From: an uncultured Verrucomicrobiae bacterium
GTDB lineage: Bacteria; Verrucomicrobiota; Verrucomicrobiia; Limisphaerales; UBA11358
Assembly: GCA_963738225.1 (NCBI GenBank)
Contig: CAVTVR010000007.1
Span: 48,018-112,017 of the forward strand
Length of the DNA: 64,000 nucleotides
Direction of reading: 5' to 3'
Shown here: positions 14,997 through 63,862 of the stretch, in pieces
How the letters are laid out: every line of letters starts with the position of its first letter
Numbering within the stretch: position 1 is the first letter of the stretch
Notes under the pieces: generated by a model
Seen by the model: the letters and a program-made list of their open reading frames with translations, nothing else
The model's database searches: none
What the model was told of the DNA's origin: nothing
Position numbers and translations under genes: made by a program

Positions 14997-14999
14997 AAG

Positions 15000-15134
15000 A
15001 TTTACGATATTCGATTTACGATTTACGATGCACGCGATGTCCGCGCGGTTTTGGCCGATGCGACCACGATGGGGAAAATTTCATTTCCTCGCGAATCATA
15101 AAAGCGCGTAAATCGTAAATCGTAAATCGTAAAT
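15000..15134. repeat. hairpin element with heptamer arms (ATTTACG x5 / CGTAAAT x4)
   Basis: Left arm 15000-15034 (ATTTACG ATATTCG ATTTACG ATTTACG ATGCACG). Right arm 15107-15134 (CGTAAAT x4, exact reverse complement unit). 72-nt loop. Lies between the hypothetical gene and gnd. Confidence 0.8.
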
Positions 15135-15146
15135 TTGAAAGCTGTT

Positions 15147-16614: not shown

Positions 16615-17799
16615 TCACAAACTCAAAATCGCTGCTGCCGCCCGTTCCGGCGCGCCGGGTTCGCCCAGCGAGGAAATAATTTTGGCGAGCTGCGCCTTGA
16701 TTTTTGCTCGGCGCGATTCGTCCTGCAACAATTCCAGCACGGCGCGCGAAAGATTTTCCGGCGTCGCGTCACGCTGGATGAATTCGGGATAAACCGTTTC
16801 ATCCGCGAGCAGGTTTGGCATCGTCAGCGATTTCACCGTCACGATGCGCCGGGCGATCTGATAAGTGAGCCACGATGTTTTGTAGAGCGTCACCGTCGGC
16901 ACGCCGAAAAACGCGCACTCCATCGTCACCGTGCCCGTCGAGGCGATGGCCACATCCGATTCCGCCAACGCCCACGGTAATTCACCGATCTGAATTTCCA
17001 CGTCTGCTTGGAGCGCGGACGACCTGTCCGCGAGTTCCTTCAAACCTAAATTCGGCAAAACCATTTTCGCCTTCGCCGCCGGTAGTTTTTCCTGAATCAA
17101 CTTTACCGCCGCAAGCATCACCGGCAAATGCCGCTGCAACTCGTTCTTGCGGCTGCCGGGCAGCAGAAGAATTTGCGATTGACGATTGACGATTGACGCG
17201 CCGCCAGCCAATTCGCGCGCAAATCGTAAATCGTCATTCGTAAATCTTCCCATCATCGGATGGCCGACAAATTCCACGCGCAACTGCGGCACGCGCCTGG
17301 CATACCAGTCCTTCTCGAACGGGAAAATGCTCAACAGCAAATCATAATCCGCCGCCAGCCGGTCCGCGCGGCCCGGACGCGACGCCCAGACTTGCGGCGA
17401 GACGAACTGGACGATCTTTGGCTCCCATTTCGAGAATGGATTATCGCGGACGTATTTCTTGACCGCCTGGCCGAAGCGCAGGTTGAACCCGCCGTAATCC
17501 ACGCCGATAACCACGTCCGGCTTGCGCTCAATCGCCAGTGCGAGCAGTTGATTGAAGAGCCGCCGGAATTTCAAAATGTTTTTCAGCACGTCCGTGATGC
17601 CGATGACCGAGTGCTGTGTCAGGTCGAAGGCCAGTTCCACGCCGGCGGCAGACATCTTCGCGCCGCCCGCGCCGAAGAAGACGGGCGAGGATGGCGGATT
17701 GAGGATGGAAGATTGGGCGCGCAGCGCGGCCACCAGTTCCGCCGCGAGCAAATCCCCGCTCGCCTCGCCGGCGATGAGCATGAAGGTTTTCGGTTTCAT
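16615..17799 (-). CDS. lpxB: lipid-A-disaccharide synthase
   Basis: MLIAGEASGDLLAAELV N-terminus, LLLPGSR and GTVTMECAFFGVPTV motifs. Contains an in-frame heptamer-array insert (17171-17245). Confidence 0.92.
   Translation of the reverse strand: MKPKTFMLIAGEASGDLLAAELVAALRAQSSILNPPSSPVFFGAGGAKMSAAGVELAFDLTQHSVIGITDVLKNILKFRRLFNQLLALAIERKPDVVIGVDYGGFNLRFGQAVKKYVRDNPFSKWEPKIVQFVSPQVWASRPGRADRLAADYDLLLSIFPFEKDWYARRVPQLRVEFVGHPMMGRFTNDDLRFARELAGGASIVNRQSQILLLPGSRKNELQRHLPVMLAAVKLIQEKLPAAKAKMVLPNLGLKELADRSSALQADVEIQIGELPWALAESDVAIASTGTVTMECAFFGVPTVTLYKTSWLTYQIARRIVTVKSLTMPNLLADETVYPEFIQRDATPENLSRAVLELLQDESRRAKIKAQLAKIISSLGEPGAPERAAAAILSL
17171..17245. repeat. intragenic hairpin with heptamer arms inside lpxB
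   Basis: ATTTGCG ATTGACG x3 (17171-17198), a 19-nt loop, then CGCAAAT CGTAAAT CGTCATT CGTAAAT (17218-17245). 75 nt, which is 25 codons. Same unit family as 15000-15134. Encodes ...FTNDDLRFARELAGGASIVNRQSQ... Confidence 0.8.
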
Positions 17800-17812: not shown

Positions 17813-17912
17813 TAGCCACGGAGTGGCGCACGATAATAGCCCACGGCGTCAGCCGTGGGAAGGCGTTGGCAAAACGATTCAAGTCCCGGCAGGGGCGAAA
17901 GAAAATTCATTC
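17813..17912. repeat. structured REP-like repeat, copy 1 (flanks the RAYT gene)
   Basis: TAGCCACGGAGTGGCG...AGCCCACGGcgtcagCCGTGGGAA...AACGATTCAAGtCCCGGcaGGGGCG. Contains several short stem-loops. About 80% identical to the copy at 18388-18488 in the same orientation. Confidence 0.75.
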
Positions 17913-18359
17913 CCACAAAAACCTTTCGTCATATTCAATTTCATGTTTTTTGAGAAACGCCACAAATTCTTCCTGAAACGAAACCTTGCGATGATGTTCC
18001 TCCTGATGGGCAACGTATTTCTCCACCTCGGCCAAAGCTGAATGGCTCACGCTGAATGCGCCATAACCGATTTGCCATGCGAACGATTTTTGATTTGGGA
18101 AATTTTTATGAATCCAGCCGGATGAATCCGCCTTCAACTCGCGCATCAAATCGGACAATGAATGTTTCGCCGCGAGCGATGCCAGAATGTGAACATGATC
18201 CGCCGGGCCGTTGATGATGAGCGCCTTTCCGTCGTGCGCGCGGATGATGCCGCCGAGATAGGGAAACAGGCGCGATTTCAAATCCGCGTCGAGCAATGGC
18301 CGCCGGTCTTTCGTGCTGAAAATGATGTGCGTCAGCAAATGGGTGAAGGTGTGCGCCAT
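17907..18359 (-). CDS. REP-associated tyrosine transposase (IS200/IS605 TnpA Y1-like, RAYT)
   Basis: 150 aa with HUH motif (PADHVHIL) and a downstream Tyr region (QIGYGAFSVS). No second IS gene. Bracketed by the two REP-like copies. Confidence 0.8.
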   Translation of the reverse strand: MAHTFTHLLTHIIFSTKDRRPLLDADLKSRLFPYLGGIIRAHDGKALIINGPADHVHILASLAAKHSLSDLMRELKADSSGWIHKNFPNQKSFAWQIGYGAFSVSHSALAEVEKYVAHQEEHHRKVSFQEEFVAFLKKHEIEYDERFLWE

Positions 18360-40367: not shown

Positions 40368-40450
40368 CCACGGATGGACACAGATTCGCACAGATGGAAA
40401 AGATTGCAGCTTCGAGAATGAATCTGTGTTTCATCTGTGTGAATCTGTGG
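40368..40450. repeat. CCACGGATGGACACAGAT-type inverted-repeat element
   Basis: CCACGGATGGACACAGATTCGCACAGATGG ... ATCTGTGTTTCATCTGTGTGAATCTGTGG. Lies between larB and larC and overlaps the last larB codons. Confidence 0.8.
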
Positions 40451-41195
40451 CCAGGGAATTGATCTGACTCGCGGCGTAACCCGCGCCAAAGCCGTTGTCA
40501 ATGTTCACCACCGTCAAGCCGCTGGCGCAACTGTTCAGCATGGCGAGCAGCGCGGCGATGCCGCCAAAACTCGCGCCGTAGCCGATGCTCGTCGGCACGG
40601 CGATGACCGGCCTGGCCACCAGTCCGGCGAGCACGCTTGGCAGCGCGCCTTCCATGCCGGCGACGGCCACGATGACATTCGCGCTTTGCAACAACTCCAT
40701 CCGCGCCAGCATCCGGTGCAGCCCGGCCACGCCGATGTCGTGAATGCGCTCGACGCGGTTGCCCATGATTTCGGCGGTGACGGCGGCTTCCTCGGCCACC
40801 GGCAAATCGCTGGTGCCGGCGCAGACGACGGCGATGAAGCCGGCGCGCTTGGGCAACGGTTTTTGCTCGATGGTCACACAGCGGGCAAGGTCGTGATGGA
40901 TCGCGCGCGGGAATTTTTTGCGAAGCGCGCGGGCGTGTTCGGCGGTGACGCGGGTGACCAGCACCGGCTGGCCGAGCGCAAAAAGTTTGGCGGCGATTTT
41001 GACGATCTGATCCGGCGTTTTGCCCGCGCCAAAAATAACTTCGGGAAAGTTTTTCCGGAGCGCGCGGTGCGTGTCCACCTGGGCAAAGCCGAGGTCCGCC
41101 ACTGGCGCGGCTTGAAATGCCTGCAAAACTTTTTCCCGCGGGATTATTCCCGCGCGAAATTGTTCGAGCAATTGAGTGGCCTCGCCGGTTGTCAT
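40431..41195 (-). CDS. larB: nickel-pincer cofactor biosynthesis protein LarB (AIR carboxylase-like)
   Basis: Trimmed to ATG 41195 (MTTGEATQLLEQF...). Shows VVCAGTSDLPVAEEA and AVAGMEGALPSVLAGL motifs. Confidence 0.87.
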   Translation of the reverse strand: MTTGEATQLLEQFRAGIIPREKVLQAFQAAPVADLGFAQVDTHRALRKNFPEVIFGAGKTPDQIVKIAAKLFALGQPVLVTRVTAEHARALRKKFPRAIHHDLARCVTIEQKPLPKRAGFIAVVCAGTSDLPVAEEAAVTAEIMGNRVERIHDIGVAGLHRMLARMELLQSANVIVAVAGMEGALPSVLAGLVARPVIAVPTSIGYGASFGGIAALLAMLNSCASGLTVVNIDNGFGAGYAASQINSLATDSHR

Positions 41196-45449: not shown

Positions 45450-46238
45450 TCAAAACCCTTCCTTGAATCGTGAGAACTCCGTTTCCGGCGGCGTGGTGAA
45501 ATCATAATTCCGCTCGCGCCAGACGAATTGAATCCGCCCGGCGTGCAGCGCGTGCCGCGGCAGGATGAGCCGGGCGCGCTGTTCATCCGTCAAACGGCCT
45601 TCCACCAGCGCGAGATATAAATCGGGATCGCCGCCGTAAATTTTGTCGCCCACGATGGGATGGCCGAGGTGCGCGAGATGGATGCGAATTTGGTGCTTGC
45701 GTCCGGTGTGTGGAATCAGGCGCACCAGCGAAAACGCGGCGGCGGCGCGCGAAAATCTTTTTTCCACGAAAAATTCCGTCTGCGCGGGCGCGCCGTCAGG
45801 CCGGACGCAGTCCTTGATGGCGACGATGCTTGTTTCGTCTTTGCCGAGCGGCGCGTCAATGATCCCATGCTCCGCCGCGATGTGGCCGTGAACGATGGCG
45901 CAGTATTCCTTTCGCACGGCGCGAGTCTCCCAGATTTTCCCCAGTTCGCGCGCCGCCGCGGGATTTTTGGCGATGACGACGAGGCCGGATGTTTCGCGGT
46001 CGAGGCGGTGGATGAGATGAGGCGCGAGGCATGAGGCAATGGGCGCGAGGGTTTGCCCCGCGCCTCGCGCCTCGCGCCCCGCGCCAGACAAATAAATCCG
46101 CACGCGGCTGATGAGGCTGGAGTATTCGTCGCCTTTGGTGGGATGACAAACCAGATCGGCGGGTTTGTGGACGACAAGCAGGTCGGCGTCTTCATGAATG
46201 ATGGCGAAGAGTTTTTCCAAACGCGGAAATTTAACCAC
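45450..46238 (-). CDS. RluA-family pseudouridine synthase
   Basis: HRLDRETSGLVV catalytic Asp motif and PHTGRKHQIRIHL. The track N-terminus (46334) is translated repeat, so the start is set tentatively at GTG 46238. Has an in-frame insert at 46014-46085. Confidence 0.82.
   Translation of the reverse strand: MVKFPRLEKLFAIIHEDADLLVVHKPADLVCHPTKGDEYSSLISRVRIYLSGAGREARGAGQTLAPIASCLAPHLIHRLDRETSGLVVIAKNPAAARELGKIWETRAVRKEYCAIVHGHIAAEHGIIDAPLGKDETSIVAIKDCVRPDGAPAQTEFFVEKRFSRAAAAFSLVRLIPHTGRKHQIRIHLAHLGHPIVGDKIYGGDPDLYLALVEGRLTDEQRARLILPRHALHAGRIQFVWRERNYDFTTPPETEFSRFKEGF
46014..46085. repeat. intragenic heptamer hairpin inside the RluA-family gene (GGCGCGA / TCGCGCC units)
   Basis: GAGATGA GGCGCGA GGCATGA GGCAATG GGCGCGA, a 9-nt loop, then CCGCGCC TCGCGCC TCGCGCC CCGCGCC. 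72 nt, which is 24 codons. Encodes ...SGAGREARGAGQTLAPIASCLA... Confidence 0.85.
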
Positions 46239-46363
46239 GGATGGACTCGGATGGACACAGATAAAATGAAGAAGGCCGAATGATGAATGAAGAAACGGGA
46301 AATCCGTGAGCCGCCCGCGAAGAAGTTTCTTCATTCTTCATTCAAAATTCTTCATTCTTCCTT
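46235..46363. repeat. composite element: CCACGGATGGA...CACAGATAAA unit plus AATGAAG/CTTCATT heptamer hairpin
   Basis: CCACGGATGGACTCGGATGGACACAGATAAA at 46235-46265. Left arm AATGAAG-type units 46265-46292. Right arm CTTCATT CTTCATT CAAAATT CTTCATT CTTCCTT at 46329-46363. Confidence 0.8.
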
Positions 46364-56052: not shown

Positions 56053-57367
56053 TTATTTCTCCAAAATGATTTGTTTATCGTTCGCCTCGCGCACCATGCC
56101 GCTCATCGGCGCATGCAGAATCGCACCGAGCGCGTTCGGCGCAGGTTCGCCGATGATTTGTCCCGCGCTCACGCGGTCGCCAGTCTTTGACTTTTGAAAG
56201 GCACGGCGTGCCGGCGCTTTGCTTGAGCGGCAGGATGAGGCGGCTTGAGGAAATTTCCTGACGCACGAGCGGCGCGGGCAAATCGTAATCGAGGACGTGC
56301 AATTTTTTGGCGAGCGATTTGATCGGCACGCGGCGGCCATCCATCATCGCGTGCGGCTTGGGGTTCATCGGGCCGGTCCACTTGATTTGTTTGGCGCGCA
56401 TGACGGCCTTCGCATCGTCGCAGGCTTCTTTCGGAAATAATTCTTCCGGGCACGCATACAACGTGCAAAGTCCGCAAGAGCAGCACATCGCGGCCCATTG
56501 ATTGAAATAATCCGCGCCCGTGCCGGTGAACGCCAGCGTGCGCATGACTTGATGCGGCTCGACCGCGTAACCGAGCAGATAGCGCGGACAAAATTCCGTG
56601 CAATAGCGGCATTGGTCGCACGCGGATTTGCCAATGCCCGCCTGCGCTTTCGGCGGCTTAAGCTTGCGCTCGATGACGTGATGCGTGCGCGGCAAAATCA
56701 CCACGCCAGTGGAAGTTTTCGTGACCGGCGTGTCGAGATCGTCCGTGTGCGTGCCCATCATCAAACCGCCGATGACCAGCACCGGATCGTCCGTCGTGAG
56801 ACCGCCGGCGTATTCGATGCACTCGCGAAACGTCGTGCCGATGGGCACGCGCAGCGTCGCGGGCGATTTCACCGCGCCGGCAATCGTGAGCATTTTGTGC
56901 GTGAGCGGCTTGCCGTCGTGCGCGGCGGCAATGTTCACAAACGTCTCGACGTTGTTGACGACCACGCCAACGGCGATGGGAATGCCGCCGGGCGGAATCA
57001 ATTTGCCCGTGACGTTGTAAACCAAATCGTATTCGTCGCCGGCCGGATAATAATCGCCAAGCAACTGGACGCGGACATTCGTGCCTTTGCTCGCGGCCTG
57101 GACGGCTTCGACGGCGTGTTTCTTTTTGCCTTTGACGCCGATGACGCCTTCCTTCGCGCCGACAGCCTCGATGGCGAGTTGCATGCCGCGCACGAGTTCG
57201 GCGGCGCTTTCTTCCATCGTCACCGCGTCCTTGTGCAGGAGCGGTTCGCACTCCGCGCCGTTGGCGATGACGGTTTCGGCCTTGGCGTTGAGCTTGACGT
57301 GCGTCGGAAATCCGCCGCCGCCCGCGCCCACGACGCCGGCCTGCCTGACTTTTTCTGCTAAATTCAT
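56053..57367 (-). CDS. pduS: PduS/RnfC-like flavin- and 4Fe-4S-containing oxidoreductase, one frame break near the 3' end
   Basis: GAGGGGFPTHVKL, an SLBB-like middle region, and two ferredoxin motifs (CDQCRYCTEFCP, CCSCGLCTLYACP). After a shift near 56190 the C-terminus reads GDRVSAGQIIGEPAPNALGAILHAPMSGMVREANDKQIILEK. Confidence 0.85.
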
Positions 57368-57389
57368 GTTAAATCAAAAATATTCTTAA

Positions 57390-57523
57390 CCACGGATGGA
57401 CACAGATGGACACAGATAAAAACAAAACGCAGAGGCGCAGAGGCCGCCAAGAGTCGCTGAGAAAATTTCCCCTGCGAGTCTCTGCGTTTTTCCCCATCTG
57501 TGTTTATCTGTGTCCATCTGTGG
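57390..57523. repeat. nested inverted-repeat element of the CCACGGATGGACACAGAT family
   Basis: Outer arms CCACGGATGGACACAGATGGACACAGATAAA / TTTATCTGTGTCCATCTGTGG. Inner stem AAAACGCAGAG...CTCTGCGTTTT. Fills the deoR-pduS gap. Confidence 0.85.
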
Positions 57524-57530
57524 TTCAAAT

Positions 57531-58314
57531 TCATTCTGCTCCATTGGCGTGCGGTGCCGGAGCCAAGATCACTTCCACACCGCGTTCGCGCAATGCCGTG
57601 ATTAAATCCTGCGGCGCTTTGCTGTCGGTGACAATCGTGTCCACCATGTCGAGTCCGCACAGCGGCGATACGGACTGCCGGCCAAATTTCGTGTGGTCGA
57701 GGCAGAAAATAATTTTCTGCGCGGCTTTCAGCATCGCGCGCTGGATGTCAATCAACAGCGCGTGCGAATTGGTGATGCCTTCGAGCGTGATGCCGCCGGC
57801 GCTCATGATCGCCACGTCGGCGCGCATTTTGGAAAACGCCTCGACCGTCATCGGCCCGACCAGCACGCCGAGCCGCGGATAAATCACGCCGCCCGCCAAA
57901 ATCACTTCCACTTTGTTCGCCGAGGCAAAAAGATTGGCCACCGGCAGAGAGTTCGTCACGATCTGCGGCGCTTTTTCTTCGAGATGCCGCGCGACGTGAT
58001 AGACCGTCGTGCCGGCATCCAAAATCACGCTTTGATTTGCGCCGATCAATTCCGCGCACGCTTTGCCGATCGCTTCTTTTTCCGAAAGCTGATGCGTGTC
58101 GCGCGACGGAGAATGCAAATTCATCCGTCTTCGGCGTGACGATGCGCGCGCCGCCGTGCGTGCGCCGCAAATTCCCTGCCGCTTCAAGCGTCGACAAATC
58201 GCGCCGCACGGTGGAAACCGACGCTTCGACGTGCTTGGAAAATTCTTCCAGCGACGCAAATTCAACACGTTGAAGATAGTCTTCAATGCGATGTTTGCGC
58301 TCTTCTGCCGTCAT
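57531..58314 (-). CDS. DeoR-family transcriptional regulator, one frame break
   Basis: N-terminal wHTH (FSKHVEASVSTVRRDLSTLEAAGNLRRTHGGA) in frame 57748-58314. DeoR C-terminal sugar-phosphate sensor domain (SVILDAGTTVYHVARHL...IMSAGGITLEG...) in frame 57531-58286. Shift near 58120. Confidence 0.87.
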
Positions 58315-58330
58315 ATTTCCAACAATTTGA

Positions 58331-58389
58331 TAGATTTTGGAAGATTTTGCAAGAAAAATGTTGACTTAAATTCTAAAATCCTGTCAAAT
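58331..58389 (+). promoter_or_regulatory. deoR/pduL divergent control region: 10-bp-phased direct repeats and a sigma70-like promoter
   Basis: TAGATTTTGG AAGATTTTGC AAGAAAAATG (58331-58360), then TTGACT (58361-58366), a 17-nt spacer and TCAAAT (58384-58389). The ATG follows at 58403. Confidence 0.3.
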
Positions 58390-58402
58390 TCAGTCAAAGT
58401 TT

Positions 58403-59081
58403 ATGTCTGTTGCTGCTCCAGCACCACATCGCGCCGTCGTCGAACATTTGGTTCGACAGGCGGTTTATGCGCGTCTTGGCAAGCCGTTGCCGCGCACTGC
58501 GAGCGGCGCCGAATCCGCTCGTCGTCAACGTCAGCGCGCGTCATTGTCATCTCACGCCGGAAGCGGTCGAGGCGCTTTTTGGCAAAGGCCACCAGCTCGG
58601 CGTCCACAAATGGCTTTATCAGGACGGCCAGTTCGCGGCGAAGGAAACCGTCACGCTCATCGGCCCGCGCAGCCGCGTGATTTCCAATTTGCGCATCCTC
58701 GGCCCGTGCCGGAGTCTGAATCAAGTCGAACTCGCTTACACGGATTCCATCGCGCTCGGTTTCGACATTCCGCTGCGCGCGTCCGGCAACATCAAGGACA
58801 CGCCCGGCGCGATGCTGATGGGCCCGGCGGGATTTTTTGAGATGCCGGATGGCGTGATCCGCGCGTTGCGGCACGTCCACATGAGCCCGACGGACGCGGA
58901 TTTTTACGGCGTGAAGCACGGCGACAACATGAAGTTAAAGATCGGCGGCGATTGCGGCATCATTCTCGACAAAATGCTTTGCCGCGTGGACAAGAGTTTC
59001 AAACTGGAAGTCCACATTGACACCGACGAAGGCAACGCCTGCAATTTGCAGCCCGACACGCCGGTCGAACTTGTAAAATAA
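58403..59081 (+). CDS. pduL: phosphate acyltransferase PduL (BMC-associated phosphotransacylase), probable frame break near the 5' end
   Basis: The catalytic part is intact in frame 58410 (VVNVSARHCHLTPE..., RHVHMSPTDA, HIDTDEGNA). Frame 58403 supplies MSVAAPAPHRAVVEHLVRQAVYARLGK. An unbroken alternative is ATG 58467-59081. Confidence 0.85.
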
Positions 59082-59120
59082 ATTTCTCACAACCCTCAAC
59101 CATCAACCAAAAAATAAATT

Positions 59121-59405
59121 ATGAGCGAAGCAATAGGAATGATTGAAACCAAGGGCTACGTCGGCAGCGTCGAAGCCAGCGATGCCATGGTCAAGGCCGC
59201 CAACGTCACGCTGGTCAAAACCATCGCCATCGGCGGCGGCCTGATCACCGTCATCGCGCAGGGCGACGTCGGCAGCATCAAGGCCGCCGTGGACGCCGGC
59301 GCAAAAGCCGCCGCCAAGGTCGGCGAACTCGTCAGTTCGCACATCATCGCGCGCCCGCACGATGAACTGCTCGCCGCCTTTCTCGGCAACGGCGTGAAAA
59401 AATAA
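59121..59405 (+). CDS. BMC-H shell protein (PduA/CcmK-type hexamer) 1
   Basis: MSEAIGMIETKGYVGSVEASDAMVKAANVTLV...GDVGSIKAAVDAGAKAA...SHIIARPH, the canonical PF00936 pattern. Confidence 0.93.
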   Translation: MSEAIGMIETKGYVGSVEASDAMVKAANVTLVKTIAIGGGLITVIAQGDVGSIKAAVDAGAKAAAKVGELVSSHIIARPHDELLAAFLGNGVKK

Positions 59406-59437
59406 TTCAACCAACCAAATTTTAACTCTTAACGAAT

Positions 59438-59717
59438 ATGTCAAAACAAGCTGTTGGAATGATTGAATGCAAAGGGTTCTGCGCCGCCGATGGAAGCCGC
59501 CGACGCCGCGCTCAAGTCCGCGAACGTCCACATCACCGGCTGGGAAAAAGTCGGCAGCGGCTACGTCACCGTGTTTTTCCGGGGCGACGTCGCCGCCGTC
59601 AAGGCCGCGACCGATGCCGGTGCGGCGGCCGCCGCGCAAGTCGGCTCGGTCGTCAGCGTCCAGGTGATCCCGCGCCCGCATGACGGTTTGAGCGGGCTTG
59701 GAAAATGGCTCGAATGA
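59438..59717 (+). CDS. BMC-H shell protein 2, one frame break
   Basis: [14 protein letters not shown] (frame 59438), then [51 protein letters not shown]...VIPRPH (frame 59463). Shift near 59482. Confidence 0.85.
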
Positions 59718-59720
59718 AAT

Positions 59721-59811
59721 AGAAGTTAGAAACTAGAAGATGGAAGTTAGAATTTCAAATCGGCCATCGCAAAAAAAATTCTGGCTTCTAACTACTAACT
59801 TCTAACTCCTG
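59721..59811. repeat. heptamer hairpin AGAAGTT x5 / AACTTCT x5
   Basis: Thirteen 7-nt units in one phase: AGAAGTT AGAAACT AGAAGAT GGAAGTT AGAATTT, a 21-nt loop, then a right arm reading AAATTCT GGCTTCT AACTACT AACTTCT AACTCCT. Lies between BMC-H2 and ackA. Confidence 0.85.
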
Positions 59812-59815
59812 AAAA

Positions 59816-61007
59816 ATGAAAATTCTCGTCGCCAATATCGGTTCGACGTCGCTCAAGTGGCGGCTGTTCGATTTTGCGAACAGCGCCGAACGCCTTTTGC
59901 ACAAAGGCGGCTTCGAGCGCGTCACCGATTATCCCAAGGCGATTGAAGATTGTTTGACAGAACTAAAAAACGCGAACGCGGTTCAAAATGAAAACGAATT
60001 GAGCGCCGTCGGTTTCAAAACCGTCATCGCCAAAAACGTCACCGGCTGCGTGCGCCTGGACGAAAAAGTTTTGCAGGCGATGACCGATTACAACGGCCTC
60101 GCGCCCGCGCACAATCCGCCCTACATCACCGGCATCAAATTGTTTTCGCAGCGGATGCCGAAAGTTCCGCTCATCGGACTTTTTGAAACGGCGTTCCATC
60201 AATTCGCACCCGAAGCGTCGCAACGCTATGCCGTGCCGGATGCGTGGTTGAACATCGGCGTGCGCCGCTGGGGGTTTCATGGCGCGAGCCACAAGTTCAT
60301 CGCCGAGCGCTCGGCGGAGTTGCTTGGGCGTCCCGATATCGCCGAACGCGCGCGGCAGCTTTATGTCAATGATGGCGAGGCGAAAATTTCCGGCGCGCCG
60401 TTGCGCGTGATCTTCGTGCCATCTCGGCGGCAGTTCGAGCGTGACGGGAATTTTAAATGGCGCATCCATCGGCACGAGCATGGGCATGAGCCCACAATCC
60501 GGGCTGCCGCAGAATAACCGCGTCGGCGATTTGGACGCCGAAGCGATTCCGTATGCGCTGAAAACTTTGGGGATTTCGGTTGAAGAGGCGCAGCGGCAAT
60601 TGACGAAAGAATCCGGACTGAAAGGCTTGAGCGGCGTGTCGAATGACGTTCGCGATATTTCTGACGCGGCGACCAGGGGAAATAAAAACGCGCAGCTCGC
60701 ACTTGACGTTTTTGTCGCGAGCGCACGGCATTGGATTGGCAGTTATTTTTTGCAATTGAACGGGTCGGACGCGATTGCGTTCACCGCCGGCACCGGCGAG
60801 AACCGCGCAGAACTGCGCGCCGCCATTTGCGCAAACCTGGAAAATCTCGGCATCAAGATTGACGCGGAAAAAAACAGTTCCTGCCGCGCGACGGAAGCGG
60901 TCATCAGCACAGCGGATTCGCCGGTGAAGATTTTTGTGATTCCCACGAACGAGGAACTTGTCGTGGCGCGCGAAGCGAAGCGATTTTTGGAATCGAAGAA
61001 AAATTGA
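59816..61007 (+). CDS. ackA: acetate kinase, one frame break
   Basis: MKILVANIGSTSLKW, FHGASHKF. After a shift near 60414 it reads CHLGGSSSVTGILNG...FTAGTGEN...IPTNEELVVARE. Confidence 0.9.
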
Positions 61008-61045
61008 TTTAACAAACAACTCCAACCATCAACGAAAATAAAATT

Positions 61046-61327
61046 ATGCCACAAGCCATTGGAATGATCGAAACACGCGGACTCGTCGCCCTTGTCGAGG
61101 GCACGGACGCAATGCTCAAGGCCGCCAACGTCGAGCTTATCGGCCCGATGACGCAGGTCGGCAACGCGCTCGTCACGGCGTGCGTCGTTGGCGATGTCGC
61201 CGCCGTGAAGGCCGCGACCGACGCCGGCGCGCAGGCCATCAAAGCCATCAAGGGCGAACTGGTCAGCGTCCACGTCATCGCCCGTCCGCACGCGGACGTG
61301 GAAGCGGTGTTGCCGAAGAAGAAGTAG
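61046..61327 (+). CDS. BMC-H shell protein 3
   Basis: MPQAIGMIETRGLVALVEGTDAMLKAANVELI...[16 protein letters not shown]...VHVIARPH. Confidence 0.93.
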   Translation: MPQAIGMIETRGLVALVEGTDAMLKAANVELIGPMTQVGNALVTACVVGDVAAVKAATDAGAQAIKAIKGELVSVHVIARPHADVEAVLPKKK

Positions 61328-61328
61328 C

Positions 61329-61405
61329 CAGAAGTCAGGAGTCAGAATCCAGAATGACGGCCTCCGCGTCACTTCTGAATTCTGGATTCTGAATACTGAA
61401 TTCTA
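61329..61405. repeat. heptamer hairpin CAGAAGT-type x4 / (A/G)ATTCTG-type x5
   Basis: CAGAAGT CAGGAGT CAGAATC CAGAATG, a 14-nt loop, then ACTTCTG AATTCTG GATTCTG AATACTG AATTCTA. 77 nt, which is 11 units. Lies between BMC-H3 and BMC-P1. Confidence 0.85.
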
Positions 61406-61408
61406 TTT

Positions 61409-61720
61409 ATGTTCCTCGCCAAAGTCGAAGGCCAGGTGGTCGCCACCAAGAAAGACCCGAACATGTCGGGCCGCAAACTGCTTTTGTTGCGCCCGCAGCT
61501 CGTGGACGAAAAAGACCCGACGAAGTTTCGTTCGGGAGCCAACACCATCGTGGCCGTGGACGCGCTCGGCGCCGGCGAAGGCGAAATGGTTTTGTTTTGC
61601 CAAGGCAGTTCCGCGCGGCTTGCGCCCGGCATGAAGGACGCGCCCGTGGACGCCGTCATCATCGGCCTGGTGGACAGCGTGGATGTTTTCGGAAAAGAAA
61701 TTTTCAGCGCGAAAGTCTGA
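61409..61720 (+). CDS. BMC-P vertex protein (EutN/CcmL family) 1
   Basis: MFLAKVEGQVVATKKDPNMSGRKLLLLRP...VAVDALGAGEGEMVLFCQGSSAR...DAVIIGLVDSVD, the PF03319 pattern. Confidence 0.9.
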   Translation: MFLAKVEGQVVATKKDPNMSGRKLLLLRPQLVDEKDPTKFRSGANTIVAVDALGAGEGEMVLFCQGSSARLAPGMKDAPVDAVIIGLVDSVDVFGKEIFSAKV

Positions 61721-61737
61721 ATCATATAAGCAATCAA

Positions 61738-61989
61738 ATGAACAATTCTGAAAAAGCACAATCTGGATTGAATCTCATTAAGGAAGCAATCCTAGGATAC
61801 TTTCATGATCACCCAAACGGTGTGACAAATGCAGAAATTGTTCGGGAATTGAAGCTTGAATCTGATTTTGAAGGCGAGAATCACAACTATCTTTCGTGGT
61901 CTGTGCTTGGACTTCTTGTTAACGATGTGAAAATTCGGTATGAGCGGCGAGGACGCAGCCGCTGTTACTTTTTAGCCAATAAGTTATGA
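61738..61989 (+). CDS. AT-rich small ORF, possible winged-helix protein, inside the BMC operon
   Basis: ATG 61738, 83 codons (MNNSEKAQSGLNLIKEAILGYFHDHPNGVTNAEIVRELKLES...). About 40% G+C by hand count against clearly GC-rich flanks. Its stop overlaps the aldehyde dehydrogenase ATG (ATGA). Confidence 0.5.
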   Translation: MNNSEKAQSGLNLIKEAILGYFHDHPNGVTNAEIVRELKLESDFEGENHNYLSWSVLGLLVNDVKIRYERRGRSRCYFLANKL

Positions 61990-63488
61990 GCGCCGTGAAC
62001 GAAACTTTAATCCGTGACGTGGTGGCCGAGGTGCTCGGCAAGCTGGGCAGCAACGCGACTGCGACTGCCAAACCCGCTCCTGCTTCGGCACCGAAATCGG
62101 ATTCATGCGGTTGCGGCACAAAAAAAACTTCTGCGACGAACGTCGCCTTGCGCGGCAAGTTCGGAGTGTTTCAGGATGCGAACGAAGCCTGCGCCGCCGC
62201 ACAGGAAGCGTATTTGCAGTTGAAACAGAAGGGTGTCGAGGCGCGCCGCAAAATTGAAAACATCGTCAAGACGCTCGCCGAAAAAAATGCCGAGGCGTGG
62301 GGCAAACTCGAACTTGATGAAACAAAAATTGGCCGGCTCGACCACAAGATCGCCAAGCTGCAAATCATCAAGCTTGTGCCCGGCGTGGACTGGTTGCGGC
62401 CCGACGCGCGCAGCGGCGATCATGGTATCACGCTGGAAGAATTCACGCCGTTCGGCGTCGTCGGCTGCGTCACGCCCAGCACGCATTCGATTCCCACGAT
62501 GAGCGGCAACATCGTGAACATCGCCGCCGCCGGTAATGCGATGGTCTTCAATCCGCATCCGGGCGCGTCGCGTTGCGCCACCGCCGCCGTGCGCGCCTAT
62601 AACGAAGCAATTTATCGCGAGACGGAAATTGAAAACATCGCATGTGTCATCGAAAAGCCGACGCTCGATTCGTTCAGCGCGATTTGCAAAAACGAAAACA
62701 CGCGGCTGCTGCTCGTCACCGGCGGACCGATGGTGGTGAAGGCCGCGATGCAGACCGGCAAGCGCGCGATTTGCGCGGGGCCGGGAAATCCGCCTGTTTT
62801 TGTGGACGACACCTGCTGTCTGATACGTGCGGCGAAGGCGATCATTTCCGGCGCGGCGTTTGACAACAATCTGCTGTGCATCGGCGAAAAGGAAGTTTTT
62901 GTGCTCGATTACATCGCGGATAAATTGATGCAAAAAATGTCCGAGAACGGCGCGGTGAAATTAAATTCCGCGCAGCTCGACCGGCTGACCAAGGCGGCAT
63001 TCACTTACAAGGAAGGCCAGGGCAGCGGTTGCGCGCACGCGAGCGTGAACAAGGATTTCATCGGCAAAGATCCATCTGTTTTGGCACAGTCGGCGGGAAT
63101 CAATTTGCCGCCCGGCACGCAGCTTTTGTTCGCCGAGACCGACGCGAAACATCCGTTCGTTGAAGAAGAACAGATGATGCCGTTTTTGCCGATCGTGCGC
63201 GTGAAAAGCGTCGAGGAAGGCATCGAACGCTCGCTCGATGCGGAACACGGTTACAAGCATACGGCCGTCATCCATTCGCATGACGTGGAAAACATCACCG
63301 CGATGGCGCGTGCGCTGGACACGACAATTTTTGTGAAGAACGGCACGAGCATGGCCGGTCTCGGTCTCGGCGGCGAAGGTTATTTGAGCTATTCCATCGC
63401 CACGCCGACGGGCGAAGGCATCACGAACCCGCGCACGTTCACGCGCATCCGCCGGTGCGTGATGGTGGATAATTTGAGGATTTATTAG
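61986..63488 (+). CDS. CoA-acylating aldehyde dehydrogenase (PduP/EutE-like) with N-terminal encapsulation-peptide-like extension
   Basis: ALDH core with FDNNLLCIGEKE (catalytic Cys) and ...EEEQMMPFLPIV... The N-terminus NETLIRDVVAEVLGKLGS is followed by an Ala/Pro/Ser-rich linker. Confidence 0.92.
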   Translation: MSAVNETLIRDVVAEVLGKLGSNATATAKPAPASAPKSDSCGCGTKKTSATNVALRGKFGVFQDANEACAAAQEAYLQLKQKGVEARRKIENIVKTLAEKNAEAWGKLELDETKIGRLDHKIAKLQIIKLVPGVDWLRPDARSGDHGITLEEFTPFGVVGCVTPSTHSIPTMSGNIVNIAAAGNAMVFNPHPGASRCATAAVRAYNEAIYRETEIENIACVIEKPTLDSFSAICKNENTRLLLVTGGPMVVKAAMQTGKRAICAGPGNPPVFVDDTCCLIRAAKAIISGAAFDNNLLCIGEKEVFVLDYIADKLMQKMSENGAVKLNSAQLDRLTKAAFTYKEGQGSGCAHASVNKDFIGKDPSVLAQSAGINLPPGTQLLFAETDAKHPFVEEEQMMPFLPIVRVKSVEEGIERSLDAEHGYKHTAVIHSHDVENITAMARALDTTIFVKNGTSMAGLGLGGEGYLSYSIATPTGEGITNPRTFTRIRRCVMVDNLRIY

Positions 63489-63574
63489 CCACAGATGAAC
63501 ACAGATGAAACACAGATAAAAATGCAAAGCAGATCGTTTGGGCATATCTGTGTTTCATCTGTGTCAATCTGTGG
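63489..63574. repeat. inverted-repeat element of the CCACAGATG...CACAGAT family
   Basis: CCACAGATGAACACAGATGAAACACAGATAAAAA ... ATATCTGTGTTTCATCTGTGTCAATCTGTGG. Lies between the aldehyde dehydrogenase and BMC-P2. Confidence 0.85.
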
Positions 63575-63583
63575 CTTGAACCT

Positions 63584-63862
63584 ATGCAATTAGCGCGCGT
63601 CGAAGGCAACATCGTGGCGACCCGGAAACATCCGAGTCTCAATGCGTGGCGTTTGGTGATCTGCCAGCCGATTGGCAAGAGCGGTGAAACTGAAGGCGCG
63701 CCGATCATTGCAATTGATTCGCACGGCGCAGGCATGCATCAGCAGGTGGTAATTTCGTCGGATGGGATCGCAGCGCGCAAGGCGGTCGGCGTGGACAAAA
63801 GTCCGGTGCGCTGGCTGGTCACCGGCATTGTGGATGAATCCGAACCGGGAAAAAGAATTTGA
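63584..63862 (+). CDS. BMC-P vertex protein (EutN/CcmL family) 2
   Basis: MQLARVEGNIVATRKHPSLNAWRLVICQP...IAIDSHGAGMHQQVVISSDG... Confidence 0.88.
   Translation: MQLARVEGNIVATRKHPSLNAWRLVICQPIGKSGETEGAPIIAIDSHGAGMHQQVVISSDGIAARKAVGVDKSPVRWLVTGIVDESEPGKRI

Follow-up and report, generated by a model that had tools for sequence, protein, structure and literature searches.

The 64,000-nucleotide (nt) stretch of contig CAVTVR010000007.1 studied here, referred to in its whole length as the window, contains a bacterial microcompartment (BMC) locus of an uncultured Verrucomicrobiae bacterium, and four of the intergenic gaps of this locus are each filled by a long hairpin. A PduS-like gene and deoR lie on the minus strand, and the plus strand reads pduL, BMC-H1, BMC-H2, ackA, BMC-H3, BMC-P1, a small open reading frame (ORF), an aldehyde dehydrogenase gene (AldDH), BMC-P2 and BMC-P3. 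The labels given to the genes of the locus in the initial annotation are borne out by Pfam, with matches to Complex1_51K and Fer4 (PduS-like), DeoRC, PTAC (PduL), BMC, Acetate_kinase, EutN_CcmL and Aldedh. That annotation described the deoR/pduS-like, BMC-H2/ackA, BMC-H3/BMC-P1 and AldDH/BMC-P2 gaps as each being one imperfect inverted repeat with no clear U-tract behind it; on reading and folding the sequence we find the same, a long imperfect palindrome filling each gap and no T-run after any of the four stems. Its description of the other junctions as short or overlapping holds for pduL/BMC-H1 (39 nt), BMC-H1/BMC-H2 (32 nt), ackA/BMC-H3 (38 nt) and BMC-P2/BMC-P3, but not for BMC-P1/AldDH, which measures 265 nt and contains the small ORF.

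All four elements are very stable when folded, as the initial annotation had proposed to check, and in each case none of 200 dinucleotide shuffles was as stable (Table 1). The elements start either overlapping the upstream stop codon or 0-2 nt past it, and end 4-8 nt ahead of the next start codon; counted from the stems, the distance is 0-2 nt from the stop codon to the first paired base and 5-10 nt from the last paired base to the start codon. When transcribed, the stems are near-perfect and 26-45 bp long. The arms of all four hairpins, and this had not been remarked before, are arrays of short tandem units with a period of 7 or 10-11. The period-10-11 unit, CACAGATGRA, is found in the deoR/pduS-like and AldDH/BMC-P2 hairpins. 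The loop of the former (about 57428-57494) contains a nested small hairpin of CGCAGAGG units, located where the ORF of the cassettes described below would be. The window has about six further sites of the same kind, so these hairpins are not confined to the BMC locus, and related Limisphaerales genomes have them throughout; in one case a CACAGAT fragment (46250-46266) adjoins a heptamer-armed hairpin (46265-46363). We rejected an assembly artefact as their source, because the same junctions are occupied in about 160 independent assemblies.

Table 1. Hairpins, leaders and selected genes of the window. Positions are in nt; for the four hairpins of the BMC locus the fold is that of the sense-strand RNA over the interval given, with z from 200 dinucleotide shuffles.
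Position	Feature	Context	Arm units and ends	Fold	Remark
57388-57525	Hairpin	deoR/pduS-like gap	three decamer units CCACGGATGGA CACAGATGGA CACAGATAAA; ends TTAACCAC...GTGGTT	57385-57528 (sense = minus strand): -79.4 kcal/mol, z -10.5	probable ORF-less GxxExxY-type cassette form
59720-59811	Hairpin	BMC-H2/ackA gap	heptamers AGAAGTT AGAAACT AGAAGAT GGAAGTT AGAATTT	59718-59815: -30.1 kcal/mol, z -6.1	probable ORF-less IVP type-1 cassette form
61330-61404	Hairpin	BMC-H3/BMC-P1 gap	heptamers CAGAAGT CAGGAGT CAGAATC CAGAATG (AGTCAGR type)	61328-61408: -33.3 kcal/mol, z -5.7	
63487-63576	Hairpin	AldDH/BMC-P2 gap	decamer/undecamer CACAGATGAA; ends TAGCCAC...GTGGCT	63485-63580: -54.3 kcal/mol, z -11.5	overlaps AldDH stop codon; probable ORF-less GxxExxY-type form
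40375-40453	CACAGAT-type hairpin	larB-like/larC junction		z -5.4	overlaps end of upstream gene
14998-15143	Heptamer-armed hairpin	fills gap upstream of gnd	ATTTACG / CGTAAAT	z -5.3	
17171-17245	Heptamer-armed hairpin	in frame inside lpxB	GATTGAC / CGTAAAT	z -5.7	
46265-46363	Heptamer-armed hairpin	divergent intergenic region	GAATGAA	z -4.2	ends 7 nt ahead of TPR gene start codon
48239-48312	Heptamer-armed hairpin	between convergent TPR gene and uppS	GAATGAA	z -8.0	
46019-46078	Possible further hairpin of this kind				
59082-59120 (+)	Leader	before BMC-H1		dG 0	G-free, CA-rich
59406-59437	Leader	before BMC-H2		dG 0	G-free, CA-rich
61008-61045	Leader	before BMC-H3		dG 0	G-free, CA-rich
56075-57367	PduS-like gene	minus strand			Complex1_51K and Fer4
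57531-58314	deoR	minus strand			identified by Pfam; split between two reading frames
58403-59081	pduL	plus strand			split between two reading frames
59438-59717	BMC-H2	plus strand			split between two reading frames
59816-61007	ackA	plus strand			split between two reading frames
61738-61989	Small AT-rich ORF (83 aa)	BMC-P1/AldDH junction			no Pfam or NCBIfam match
16615-17799	lpxB	minus strand			
17907-18359	IS200-like Y1 transposase gene	minus strand			PF01797, E 3e-25
17814-17859	Acido-Lenti-1 RNA match	next to Y1 transposase gene			RF01687, 51.9 bits, full length

The origin of the hairpins became visible in related loci, which were fetched with the AldDH protein (80 genome and 80 metagenome loci, 73-89% identity) and which are designated, like the plasmids discussed below, by L-numbers. 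Where a relative is named it nearly always belongs to Limisphaerales or Verrucomicrobia subdivision 3, and the operon is syntenic. Several relatives carry long inserts between AldDH and BMC-P2 (406-681 nt), each containing one co-directional ORF of about 121-126 residues that belongs to the four-helix-bundle family PF05635 23S_rRNA_IVP / TIGR02436 (E 3e-37 and 4e-11), with weak similarity to Avd of diversity-generating retroelements. When all ORFs were searched with a hidden Markov model (HMM), 1.86 Mb yielded 29 such IVP genes, 28 of them between AldDH and BMC-P2 and one between E2 and E3 of a 2-oxoacid dehydrogenase operon. Inverted heptamer arrays bracket every one of the 29 whose flanks are available, and a flank inverted-repeat score of at least 12 (ungapped) was reached by 18/29 IVP genes, against 2.6% of 1269 control genes. 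The arm unit of these type I cassettes is the heptamer AGYYAGR, of which the window has copies in the BMC-H2/ackA and BMC-H3/BMC-P1 hairpins. One subtype, ivp1, has the arms AGTTAGAAGCTAGAAGTTAGGAACTAGA, directly followed by ATG, and ATTCTAACTTCTCGCTCCTAAATTCTAACTCCT; these are of the same family as the BMC-H2/ackA hairpin, both arms of which align with the arms of ivp1 cassettes (alignment A1; AldDH/BMC-P2 junctions of L085, L024, L124 and L130) with the ORF missing between them. In the same alignment L112 is an intermediate in which the ORF is partly deleted. The other subtype, ivp2, has arms of CCGAAAT and GACGAAT units, which match those ORF-less hairpins that are most frequent in the relatives. 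In a protein search the best 120 homologues of ivp1 came only from close Verrucomicrobiota relatives.

Other long inserts of the relatives, located at BMC-P1/AldDH, pduL/BMC-H1 and BMC-H2/ackA, hold a different ORF of about 125 residues, which matches TIGR04256 GxxExxY / PF13366 PDDEXK_3 of the PD-(D/E)XK nuclease superfamily (E 4e-35 and 4e-32). These ORFs number 13, from 11 distinct cassettes, and all of them lie between (TT)AACCACGAATNNACACNAAT... and ...ATTCGTGTNNATTCGTGTCCATTCGTGGTT(AA), with the start codon lying inside the 5' arm. The arms of these type G cassettes are built of CACRGAT decamers with ends (TT)AACCAC...GTGGTT(AA), and the window copies are the deoR/pduS-like hairpin (57388-57525), the AldDH/BMC-P2 hairpin and the one at larB-like/larC. 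In L034 the cassette is of the CACAGAT variant, with arms nearly identical to the ones of the deoR/pduS-like hairpin; in alignment A3 both CACAGAT hairpins of the BMC locus map to both cassette arms, the ORF being absent. We consider it very probable that the four hairpins are copies of dispersed repeats, namely ORF-less miniatures of two families of cassettes.

The pairing of arm and protein is found beyond the clade. A tblastn search of 72,556 plasmids with ivp1 gave 37 plasmid records, mostly from Nostocales, and inverted tandem-unit arms were present at eight of the 11 plasmid IVP genes that we looked at. The units in Nostoc punctiforme, Aulosira and Trichormus are AGTCAGG/AGTCAGA, nearly the same string as positions 61330-61355 of the window; other units flank the genes of Picosynechococcus, Riemerella, Geminocystis, Leptolyngbya and Anabaena 90. 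Several of these genes lie inside operons in the orientation of their neighbours (between cas10 and cmr3, and between cas6 and cas4). With blastn the BMC-H3/BMC-P1 element found 20 matches on the plasmids, all cyanobacterial, and the deoR/pduS-like element (57380-57535) found none. Three of the four plasmid GxxExxY genes that we looked at have inverted CACAGAG, CACGGAT or CGCGGAT units; in Bernardetia and Treponema these lie on either side of the gene, and in Gemmatirosa they make up a hairpin immediately downstream of it. The gene of Persicobacter has no clear arms. AGTCAGR arms accompany IVP genes in Cyanobacteriota, and CACRGAT-type arms accompany GxxExxY genes in Bacteroidota, Spirochaetota and Gemmatimonadota. 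In these comparisons arm motif and protein family tend to stay together from phylum to phylum, which suggests that each protein recognises its own array.

Occupancy of the individual junctions was compared in 161 deduplicated sequences (160 relatives and the window), a hairpin being called strong at z <= -3 and dG <= -20. An ungapped inverted-repeat scan of 1.25 Mb, made up of the window and relatives, gave 140 strong hairpins; 35 came from the first 25 sequences, against none from block-shuffled versions of the same 25. The length of each gap is bimodal across the relatives, either a few nt or about 60-200 nt. Strong hairpins are most frequent at BMC-H3/BMC-P1 (89/124, 72%), where the gap measures 50-250 nt in 119/124. 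They are found at BMC-H2/ackA in 39/92 (42%), deoR/pduS in 10/32 (31%), AldDH/BMC-P2 in 32/137 (23%, besides 25 inserts longer than 250 nt), pduL/BMC-H1 in 14/84 (17%), BMC-P1/AldDH in 22/141 (16%) and ackA/BMC-H3 in 7/116 (6%). At BMC-H1/BMC-H2 there are none in 88, and 87 of these 88 gaps are shorter than 50 nt. The background outside the BMC locus is 22/353 (6.2%) for co-directional, 8/93 for convergent and 3/70 for divergent junctions; with gaps of 50-250 nt the corresponding counts there are 22/140 (tandem), 8/29 and 3/35, a mild and non-significant depletion of divergent junctions. The occupants of BMC-H3/BMC-P1 vary widely by species, with at least 10 unrelated arm families that include GC-rich GTAG-type palindromes and pairs of small GC hairpins. 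The unit variant is specific to the genome (CACAGAT in the window, CACGAAT or CACGGAT elsewhere), and the period was 7 in 29 scanned hairpin arms and 10-11 in the CACRGAT family.

The best AldDH relatives in the genome and metagenome scans reached at most 89% protein identity to the window, and microevolution was therefore read from close pairs among the relatives. At an AldDH nucleotide identity of at least 97% the hairpins are inherited with few changes; the five substitutions between L001 and L082 spare the 2 x 26-bp stem and are confined to the loop or tail. With identity down to about 95%, L017 and L031 show exact presence and absence at two junctions (AldDH/BMC-P2, 3 versus 105 nt; pduL/BMC-H1, 37 versus 156 nt), and in L124 versus L132 the occupant of BMC-H3/BMC-P1 has been swapped for another family while the site remains occupied. 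The comparison with orthologous loci lacking the elements, which the initial annotation had put forward as a check, accordingly finds them present or absent between close relatives. Such pairs show a turnover of the elements at the DNA level, by insertion, loss and replacement.

Among known elements, the closest to the type I cassettes are the intervening sequences (IVS) of 23S rRNA in Leptospira and Coxiella, which likewise have a terminal inverted-repeat stem of about 28-45 bp around a PF05635 ORF of about 120 residues. That of Coxiella, 'selfish' and 428 nt long, has an ORF of the IVP family and a 28-bp inverted-repeat stem cut mid-stem by RNase III (PMC4990558); the IVP domain itself is described as functionally uncharacterised (PMC11270868). 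A long inverted-repeat stem with an optional IVP/S23p ORF is what the type I family has, in 28 cassettes at AldDH/BMC-P2 and one between E2 and E3, and 23S rRNA IVS also occur in short ORF-less forms like the BMC-H2/ackA and BMC-H3/BMC-P1 hairpins. Unlike rRNA IVS, which are found at helix 25 or 45, the copies considered here lie between or within protein-coding genes (AldDH/BMC-P, E2/E3, cas10/cmr3), and the window has no rRNA. They differ too in that the type I arms are tandem heptamer arrays and the window copies are ORF-less, the link to RNase III being a putative one through substrate geometry. In being short, ORF-less, multicopy, bounded by inverted repeats and present or absent between relatives, the hairpins resemble miniature inverted-repeat transposable elements (MITEs), and as in MITEs their inverted repeats are common to a longer ORF-carrying element from which they differ by internal deletion (alignments A1 and A3, with L112 as intermediate). 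Unlike in MITEs, the whole arm is a tandem array and not a unique terminal inverted repeat. The PDDEXK_3 family of the type G cassettes is of unknown function and has undergone multiple transfers (PMC3424549).

Repetitive extragenic palindromic (REP) sequences and the bacterial interspersed mosaic elements (BIMEs) that they form are also dispersed palindromes at gene ends within operons, and REPs have been proposed as mRNA stabilisers. The GTAG type has been described in Verrucomicrobia (PMC3733652), and in the relatives it forms a separate GC-rich class, some copies being nested in type G loops, often at the place where the ORF would be; a Y1_Tnp gene is present in the window, flanked by an Acido-Lenti-1 match and not by these hairpins. 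The four hairpins begin with AACCAC, AGAAGTT, CCAGAAG and AGCCAC, and because the GTAG/CGTC tag is absent from all of them we regard the REP-like label of the initial annotation as a fair analogy and not as membership. They are moreover 75-138 nt long and AT-rich with tandem-unit arms, unlike the 20-40 nt of REPs. Intergenic heptamer direct repeats abutting start codons have been described in Beggiatoaceae, Cyanobacteria and Bacteroidetes, with roles that are only speculative (PMC4679880; bioRxiv 10.1101/2022.06.06.494920). The BMC-H2/ackA and BMC-H3/BMC-P1 hairpins are similarly intergenic arrays of 7-nt units, like the cyanobacterial STRR-type (short tandemly repeated repetitive) and TAACTGA repeats, which often abut start codons in phyla with little use of Shine-Dalgarno sequences (PMC4679880), and the AGTCAGR unit is abundant on Nostocales plasmids. 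The published arrays are direct repeats, whereas those described here are paired in inverted orientation, fold into hairpins and go with particular cassette genes. A search of the window at Rfam gathering scores returned a sole match, Acido-Lenti-1 (Table 1), and no family for the hairpins; at E <= 1 the BMC locus gave one sub-threshold match to a plant miRNA precursor (63475-63585), a generic hairpin match. Rickettsia palindromic elements (RPE) are selfish palindromes able to sit in frame inside genes, and in phage T7 intercistronic stems cut by RNase III partition the polycistronic mRNA of the early genes. The likeness of the former to the hairpin inside lpxB, and of the latter to the operon stems, is an analogy of mechanism only, with no sequence relationship.

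On balance we lean towards an explanation in which hairpins derived from cassettes have an RNA-level effect on the operon and selection acts on their persistence at particular sites. Type I and type G cassettes sit at gene junctions, the four hairpins being very probably their remnants without the gene. Once the operon is transcribed, each element would form a stem of 26-45 bp, which is the type of RNase III substrate found in the homologous 23S intervening sequences, and for this reason cleavage of the mRNA at occupied junctions would be the likeliest outcome. Cleavage would leave the upstream piece ending in a protective half-stem; processing, and termination by upstream ribosomes, would decide whether the start region of the downstream gene is accessible or masked. 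In either case the hexamer genes would no longer be tied in expression to the pentamer and enzyme genes behind them. We infer that the likeliest RNA-level effect is cutting of the RNase III type or occlusion of the downstream start site, and not termination. The chances that there is some measurable effect on relative expression seem to us even; RNase III specifically can be proposed only tentatively, by analogy with the substrate, and an adaptive role in stoichiometry is doubtful. The elements look selfish in origin, and their distribution suggests that selection nevertheless keeps a stem at BMC-H3/BMC-P1 and excludes it at BMC-H1/BMC-H2.

The initial annotation had regarded the hairpins as a regulatory device of this locus, in which partial terminators or REP-like 3' stabilisers divide the operon and so set the ratio of hexamers, pentamers and enzymes. 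Junction occupancy does follow that model, being high after BMC-H2, BMC-H3 and AldDH and near zero before the hexamer genes; the stems are very stable, and the hexamer genes have unstructured, G-free leaders instead. The same families are, however, found genome-wide, also in contexts that are not 3' ends (a divergent promoter region, convergent genes, the inside of lpxB), and the hairpins appear to descend from selfish-looking gene cassettes and are present or absent between close relatives. A partial intrinsic terminator is without sequence support because no U-tract follows the stems, and a scan for consensus terminators and promoters found canonical terminator-like sites in the locus at chance level (16 versus 16.9 expected, none at the hairpins); neither a sense-strand wobble signature nor a GTAG/CGTC tag accompanies them. 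A device of this kind is in our opinion quite improbable. Its terminator or stabiliser mechanism and its restriction to the locus are not supported, and the idea of a partition to suit stoichiometry stays a live hypothesis. The opposite possibility is that the elements are purely selfish or neutral DNA that inserts at gene boundaries as the only tolerated sites and does not affect expression, so that occupancy would reflect site preference and ancestry. This would account for presence, absence and replacement between close relatives, for the symmetry at the DNA level, for the occurrence of the same families at many unrelated loci, and for the small selfish-looking genes (DinD-like, PIN, IVP, GxxExxY) that also collect at BMC-P1/AldDH and AldDH/BMC-P2. 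It does not readily account for the long gap at BMC-H3/BMC-P1, which persists in 119/124 although the family of the occupant changes within about 5% divergence, or for the lack of strong hairpins and the short gaps at BMC-H1/BMC-H2, where a comparably short gap separates comparable genes. A 26-45 bp stem ending 5-10 nt before a start codon is, from general knowledge, also hardly expected to leave translation and RNA processing unaffected. We judge the neutral alternative unlikely.

The placement of the stems, which begin 0-2 nt past a stop codon and leave 5-10 nt to the next start codon, would equally suit a translational gate, in which the stem hides the region upstream of the ackA, BMC-P1 and BMC-P2 starts, translation is either low or strictly coupled, the foot of the stem being opened by a ribosome that terminates at the neighbouring stop codon, and no RNA is cleaved. 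The interval from stem to start codon is free of Shine-Dalgarno-like sequences, the hexamer leaders are open and G-free, and an influence on translation has been suggested, though not proven, for the start-abutting heptamer arrays of Beggiatoaceae and Nostoc (PMC4679880; bioRxiv 10.1101/2022.06.06.494920). Against such a gate, the same elements are found in places without a following start codon, namely inside lpxB and between uppS and the TPR gene convergent with it. We think a gate that acts without cleavage rather unlikely, and note that gating and RNase III processing are not mutually exclusive. The CACRGAT units, at 10-11 bp, are about one helical turn apart, and the arrays could accordingly be operators or nucleoid-protein sites that act as DNA and not as RNA; one copy adjoins deoR, and the conservation of the unit across phyla together with one protein family suggests sequence-specific recognition. 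The conserved partner is, however, the cassette's own GxxExxY protein and not DeoR, the heptamer families lack helical periodicity, and the family is present at unrelated loci (larB/larC, AldDH/BMC-P2 and many sites in the relatives). We have therefore rejected DeoR operators, and protein-binding arrays in general seem very improbable indeed.

Of course, a number of observations weigh against an origin from cassettes combined with a function in RNA. Neither an IVP gene (HMM search of all ORFs) nor a GxxExxY ORF is present in the window, and the derivation of its hairpins is therefore drawn from the relatives. The parent ORFs, PDDEXK_3/GxxExxY and 23S_rRNA_IVP, are not recognised transposases, unlike those of MITE parents, and no target-site duplication was seen at the few empty and filled pairs (L017 versus L031, AldDH/BMC-P2 and pduL/BMC-H1), where the indels are precise. 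Three of the 11 plasmid IVP genes have heptamer arrays that are direct or one-sided, so a hairpin is not obligatory for the cassette. Phylogenetic independence cannot be assumed for the occupancy counts across the relatives. The elements also persist where partitioning of an operon is impossible, as the hairpins within lpxB and in a divergent region show. As to a signature in RNA, sense and antisense folds did not differ in stability in 191 junction gaps, a test confounded by the CA-rich leaders, and the stem mismatches of 97 hairpins of known transcription direction are, on the sense strand, no more often of the G.U than of the A.C type (56 versus 76). In the CACRGAT hairpins at AldDH/BMC-P2 of the window and nine relatives, 6/24 pairs have changed on both sides, one-sided changes to G.U are few and the loops are unconserved. 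These compensatory changes keep Watson-Crick pairing on both strands, which fits palindromes maintained or homogenised at the DNA level; since such homogenisation would give the same pattern without any RNA function, pairing on both strands would neither support nor exclude one.

More broadly, and tentatively, the comparisons are consistent with two cross-phylum classes of operon-junction cassettes, each encoding a protein that would recognise its own repeat array (for homing-type spread or IVS-like excision from RNA), with miniatures that hosts may have co-opted at junctions such as BMC-H/BMC-P. By the present searches the GxxExxY class would extend over Verrucomicrobiota, Bacteroidota, Spirochaetota and Gemmatimonadota, and the IVP/Avd-like class over Verrucomicrobiota, Cyanobacteriota and Bacteroidota. 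Neither class has been described in the literature that we found, the coverage of which is incomplete, and within that coverage no paper ties either protein family to inverted tandem-unit arms or to ORF-less hairpins. The feature is real and ordinary as repeat DNA, yet as far as we have checked its palindromic, miniature variant is without earlier description. If the proposal is correct, the intervening sequences of 23S rRNA, heptamer arrays of the cyanobacterial type, and the many-copy genes for four-helix-bundle and GxxExxY proteins would be one kind of mobile element. The comparisons themselves connect two very common, many-copy families of unknown function (TIGR02436 and TIGR04256) with specific inverted tandem-repeat arms and with abundant ORF-less hairpins. 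This makes for testable hypotheses on what these proteins bind or cut, on the origin of heptamer arrays and on the kinship of 23S rRNA intervening sequences with elements of mRNA operons. For the BMC locus, the question shifts from a regulatory device of the operon to selfish palindromes that are tolerated, or kept by selection, at particular junctions, and the case cautions against inferring function from hairpins alone. The 124 alleles of BMC-H3/BMC-P1, with different occupants and a few of them empty (6 nt in L052, L059 and L069), offer a natural experiment on intercistronic stems and shell-protein ratios.

Several further observations concern the cassettes and their sites. IVP / Avd-like genes lie between AldDH and BMC-P2 in 28/161 sequences (L010, L015, L024, L033, L047, L058, L061, L083, L085 and others), in two subtypes and always co-directional; we know of no report of a four-helix-bundle gene in microcompartment loci of the PVM type. 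The BMC-P1/AldDH junction, which in the window holds the small ORF, is occupied in the relatives by GxxExxY cassettes, by DinD/Bro-N-like genes, by a PIN-like gene (these two labels being given by eye) or by other ORFs, and looks like a hot spot for small inserted genes; the one DinD/Bro-N-like gene that was searched had no Pfam or NCBIfam match. In some large CACRGAT elements (L016 3590-3770, L030 2069-2246, L034 9002-9176, L037 4960-5125, L061 9838-9999 and L063 3998-4173) a GC-rich REP-like palindrome, GGAGCGCGG... or GGTAGGGCGCG..., is nested in the loop, which looks like the insertion of one class of repeat into another. Four-helix-bundle genes with tandem-repeat flanks are inserted in CRISPR-Cas operons of a Picosynechococcus plasmid (L162), Anabaena 90 (L167) and Pseudanabaena (L169), at cas10/cmr2-cmr3, upstream of cas4 and at cas6-cas4; the flanking arrays in Pseudanabaena, AAGCTAA x8 and AAGCCAA x9, are direct and not inverted.

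In the window itself, the hairpin inside lpxB leaves the reading frame intact and contributes about 25 residues to the protein, located between its GHP and LLPGSR motifs. The three BMC-H leaders are quasi-repeats (CAACCAT CAACCAA...) with no predicted structure and no Shine-Dalgarno sequence, which points to initiation of translation independently of Shine-Dalgarno pairing in these presumably highly expressed shell genes. Four genes of the locus are split between two reading frames (Table 1); the N- and C-terminal parts of ackA, for example, lie in one frame in L002 and are offset by 1 nt in the window. Four frameshifts in about 3 kb suggest either indel errors of long-read assembly or a decaying operon. 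Finally, the Y1 transposase gene near lpxB is followed directly by the full-length Acido-Lenti-1 match, and this RNA motif may be part of the transposase unit.

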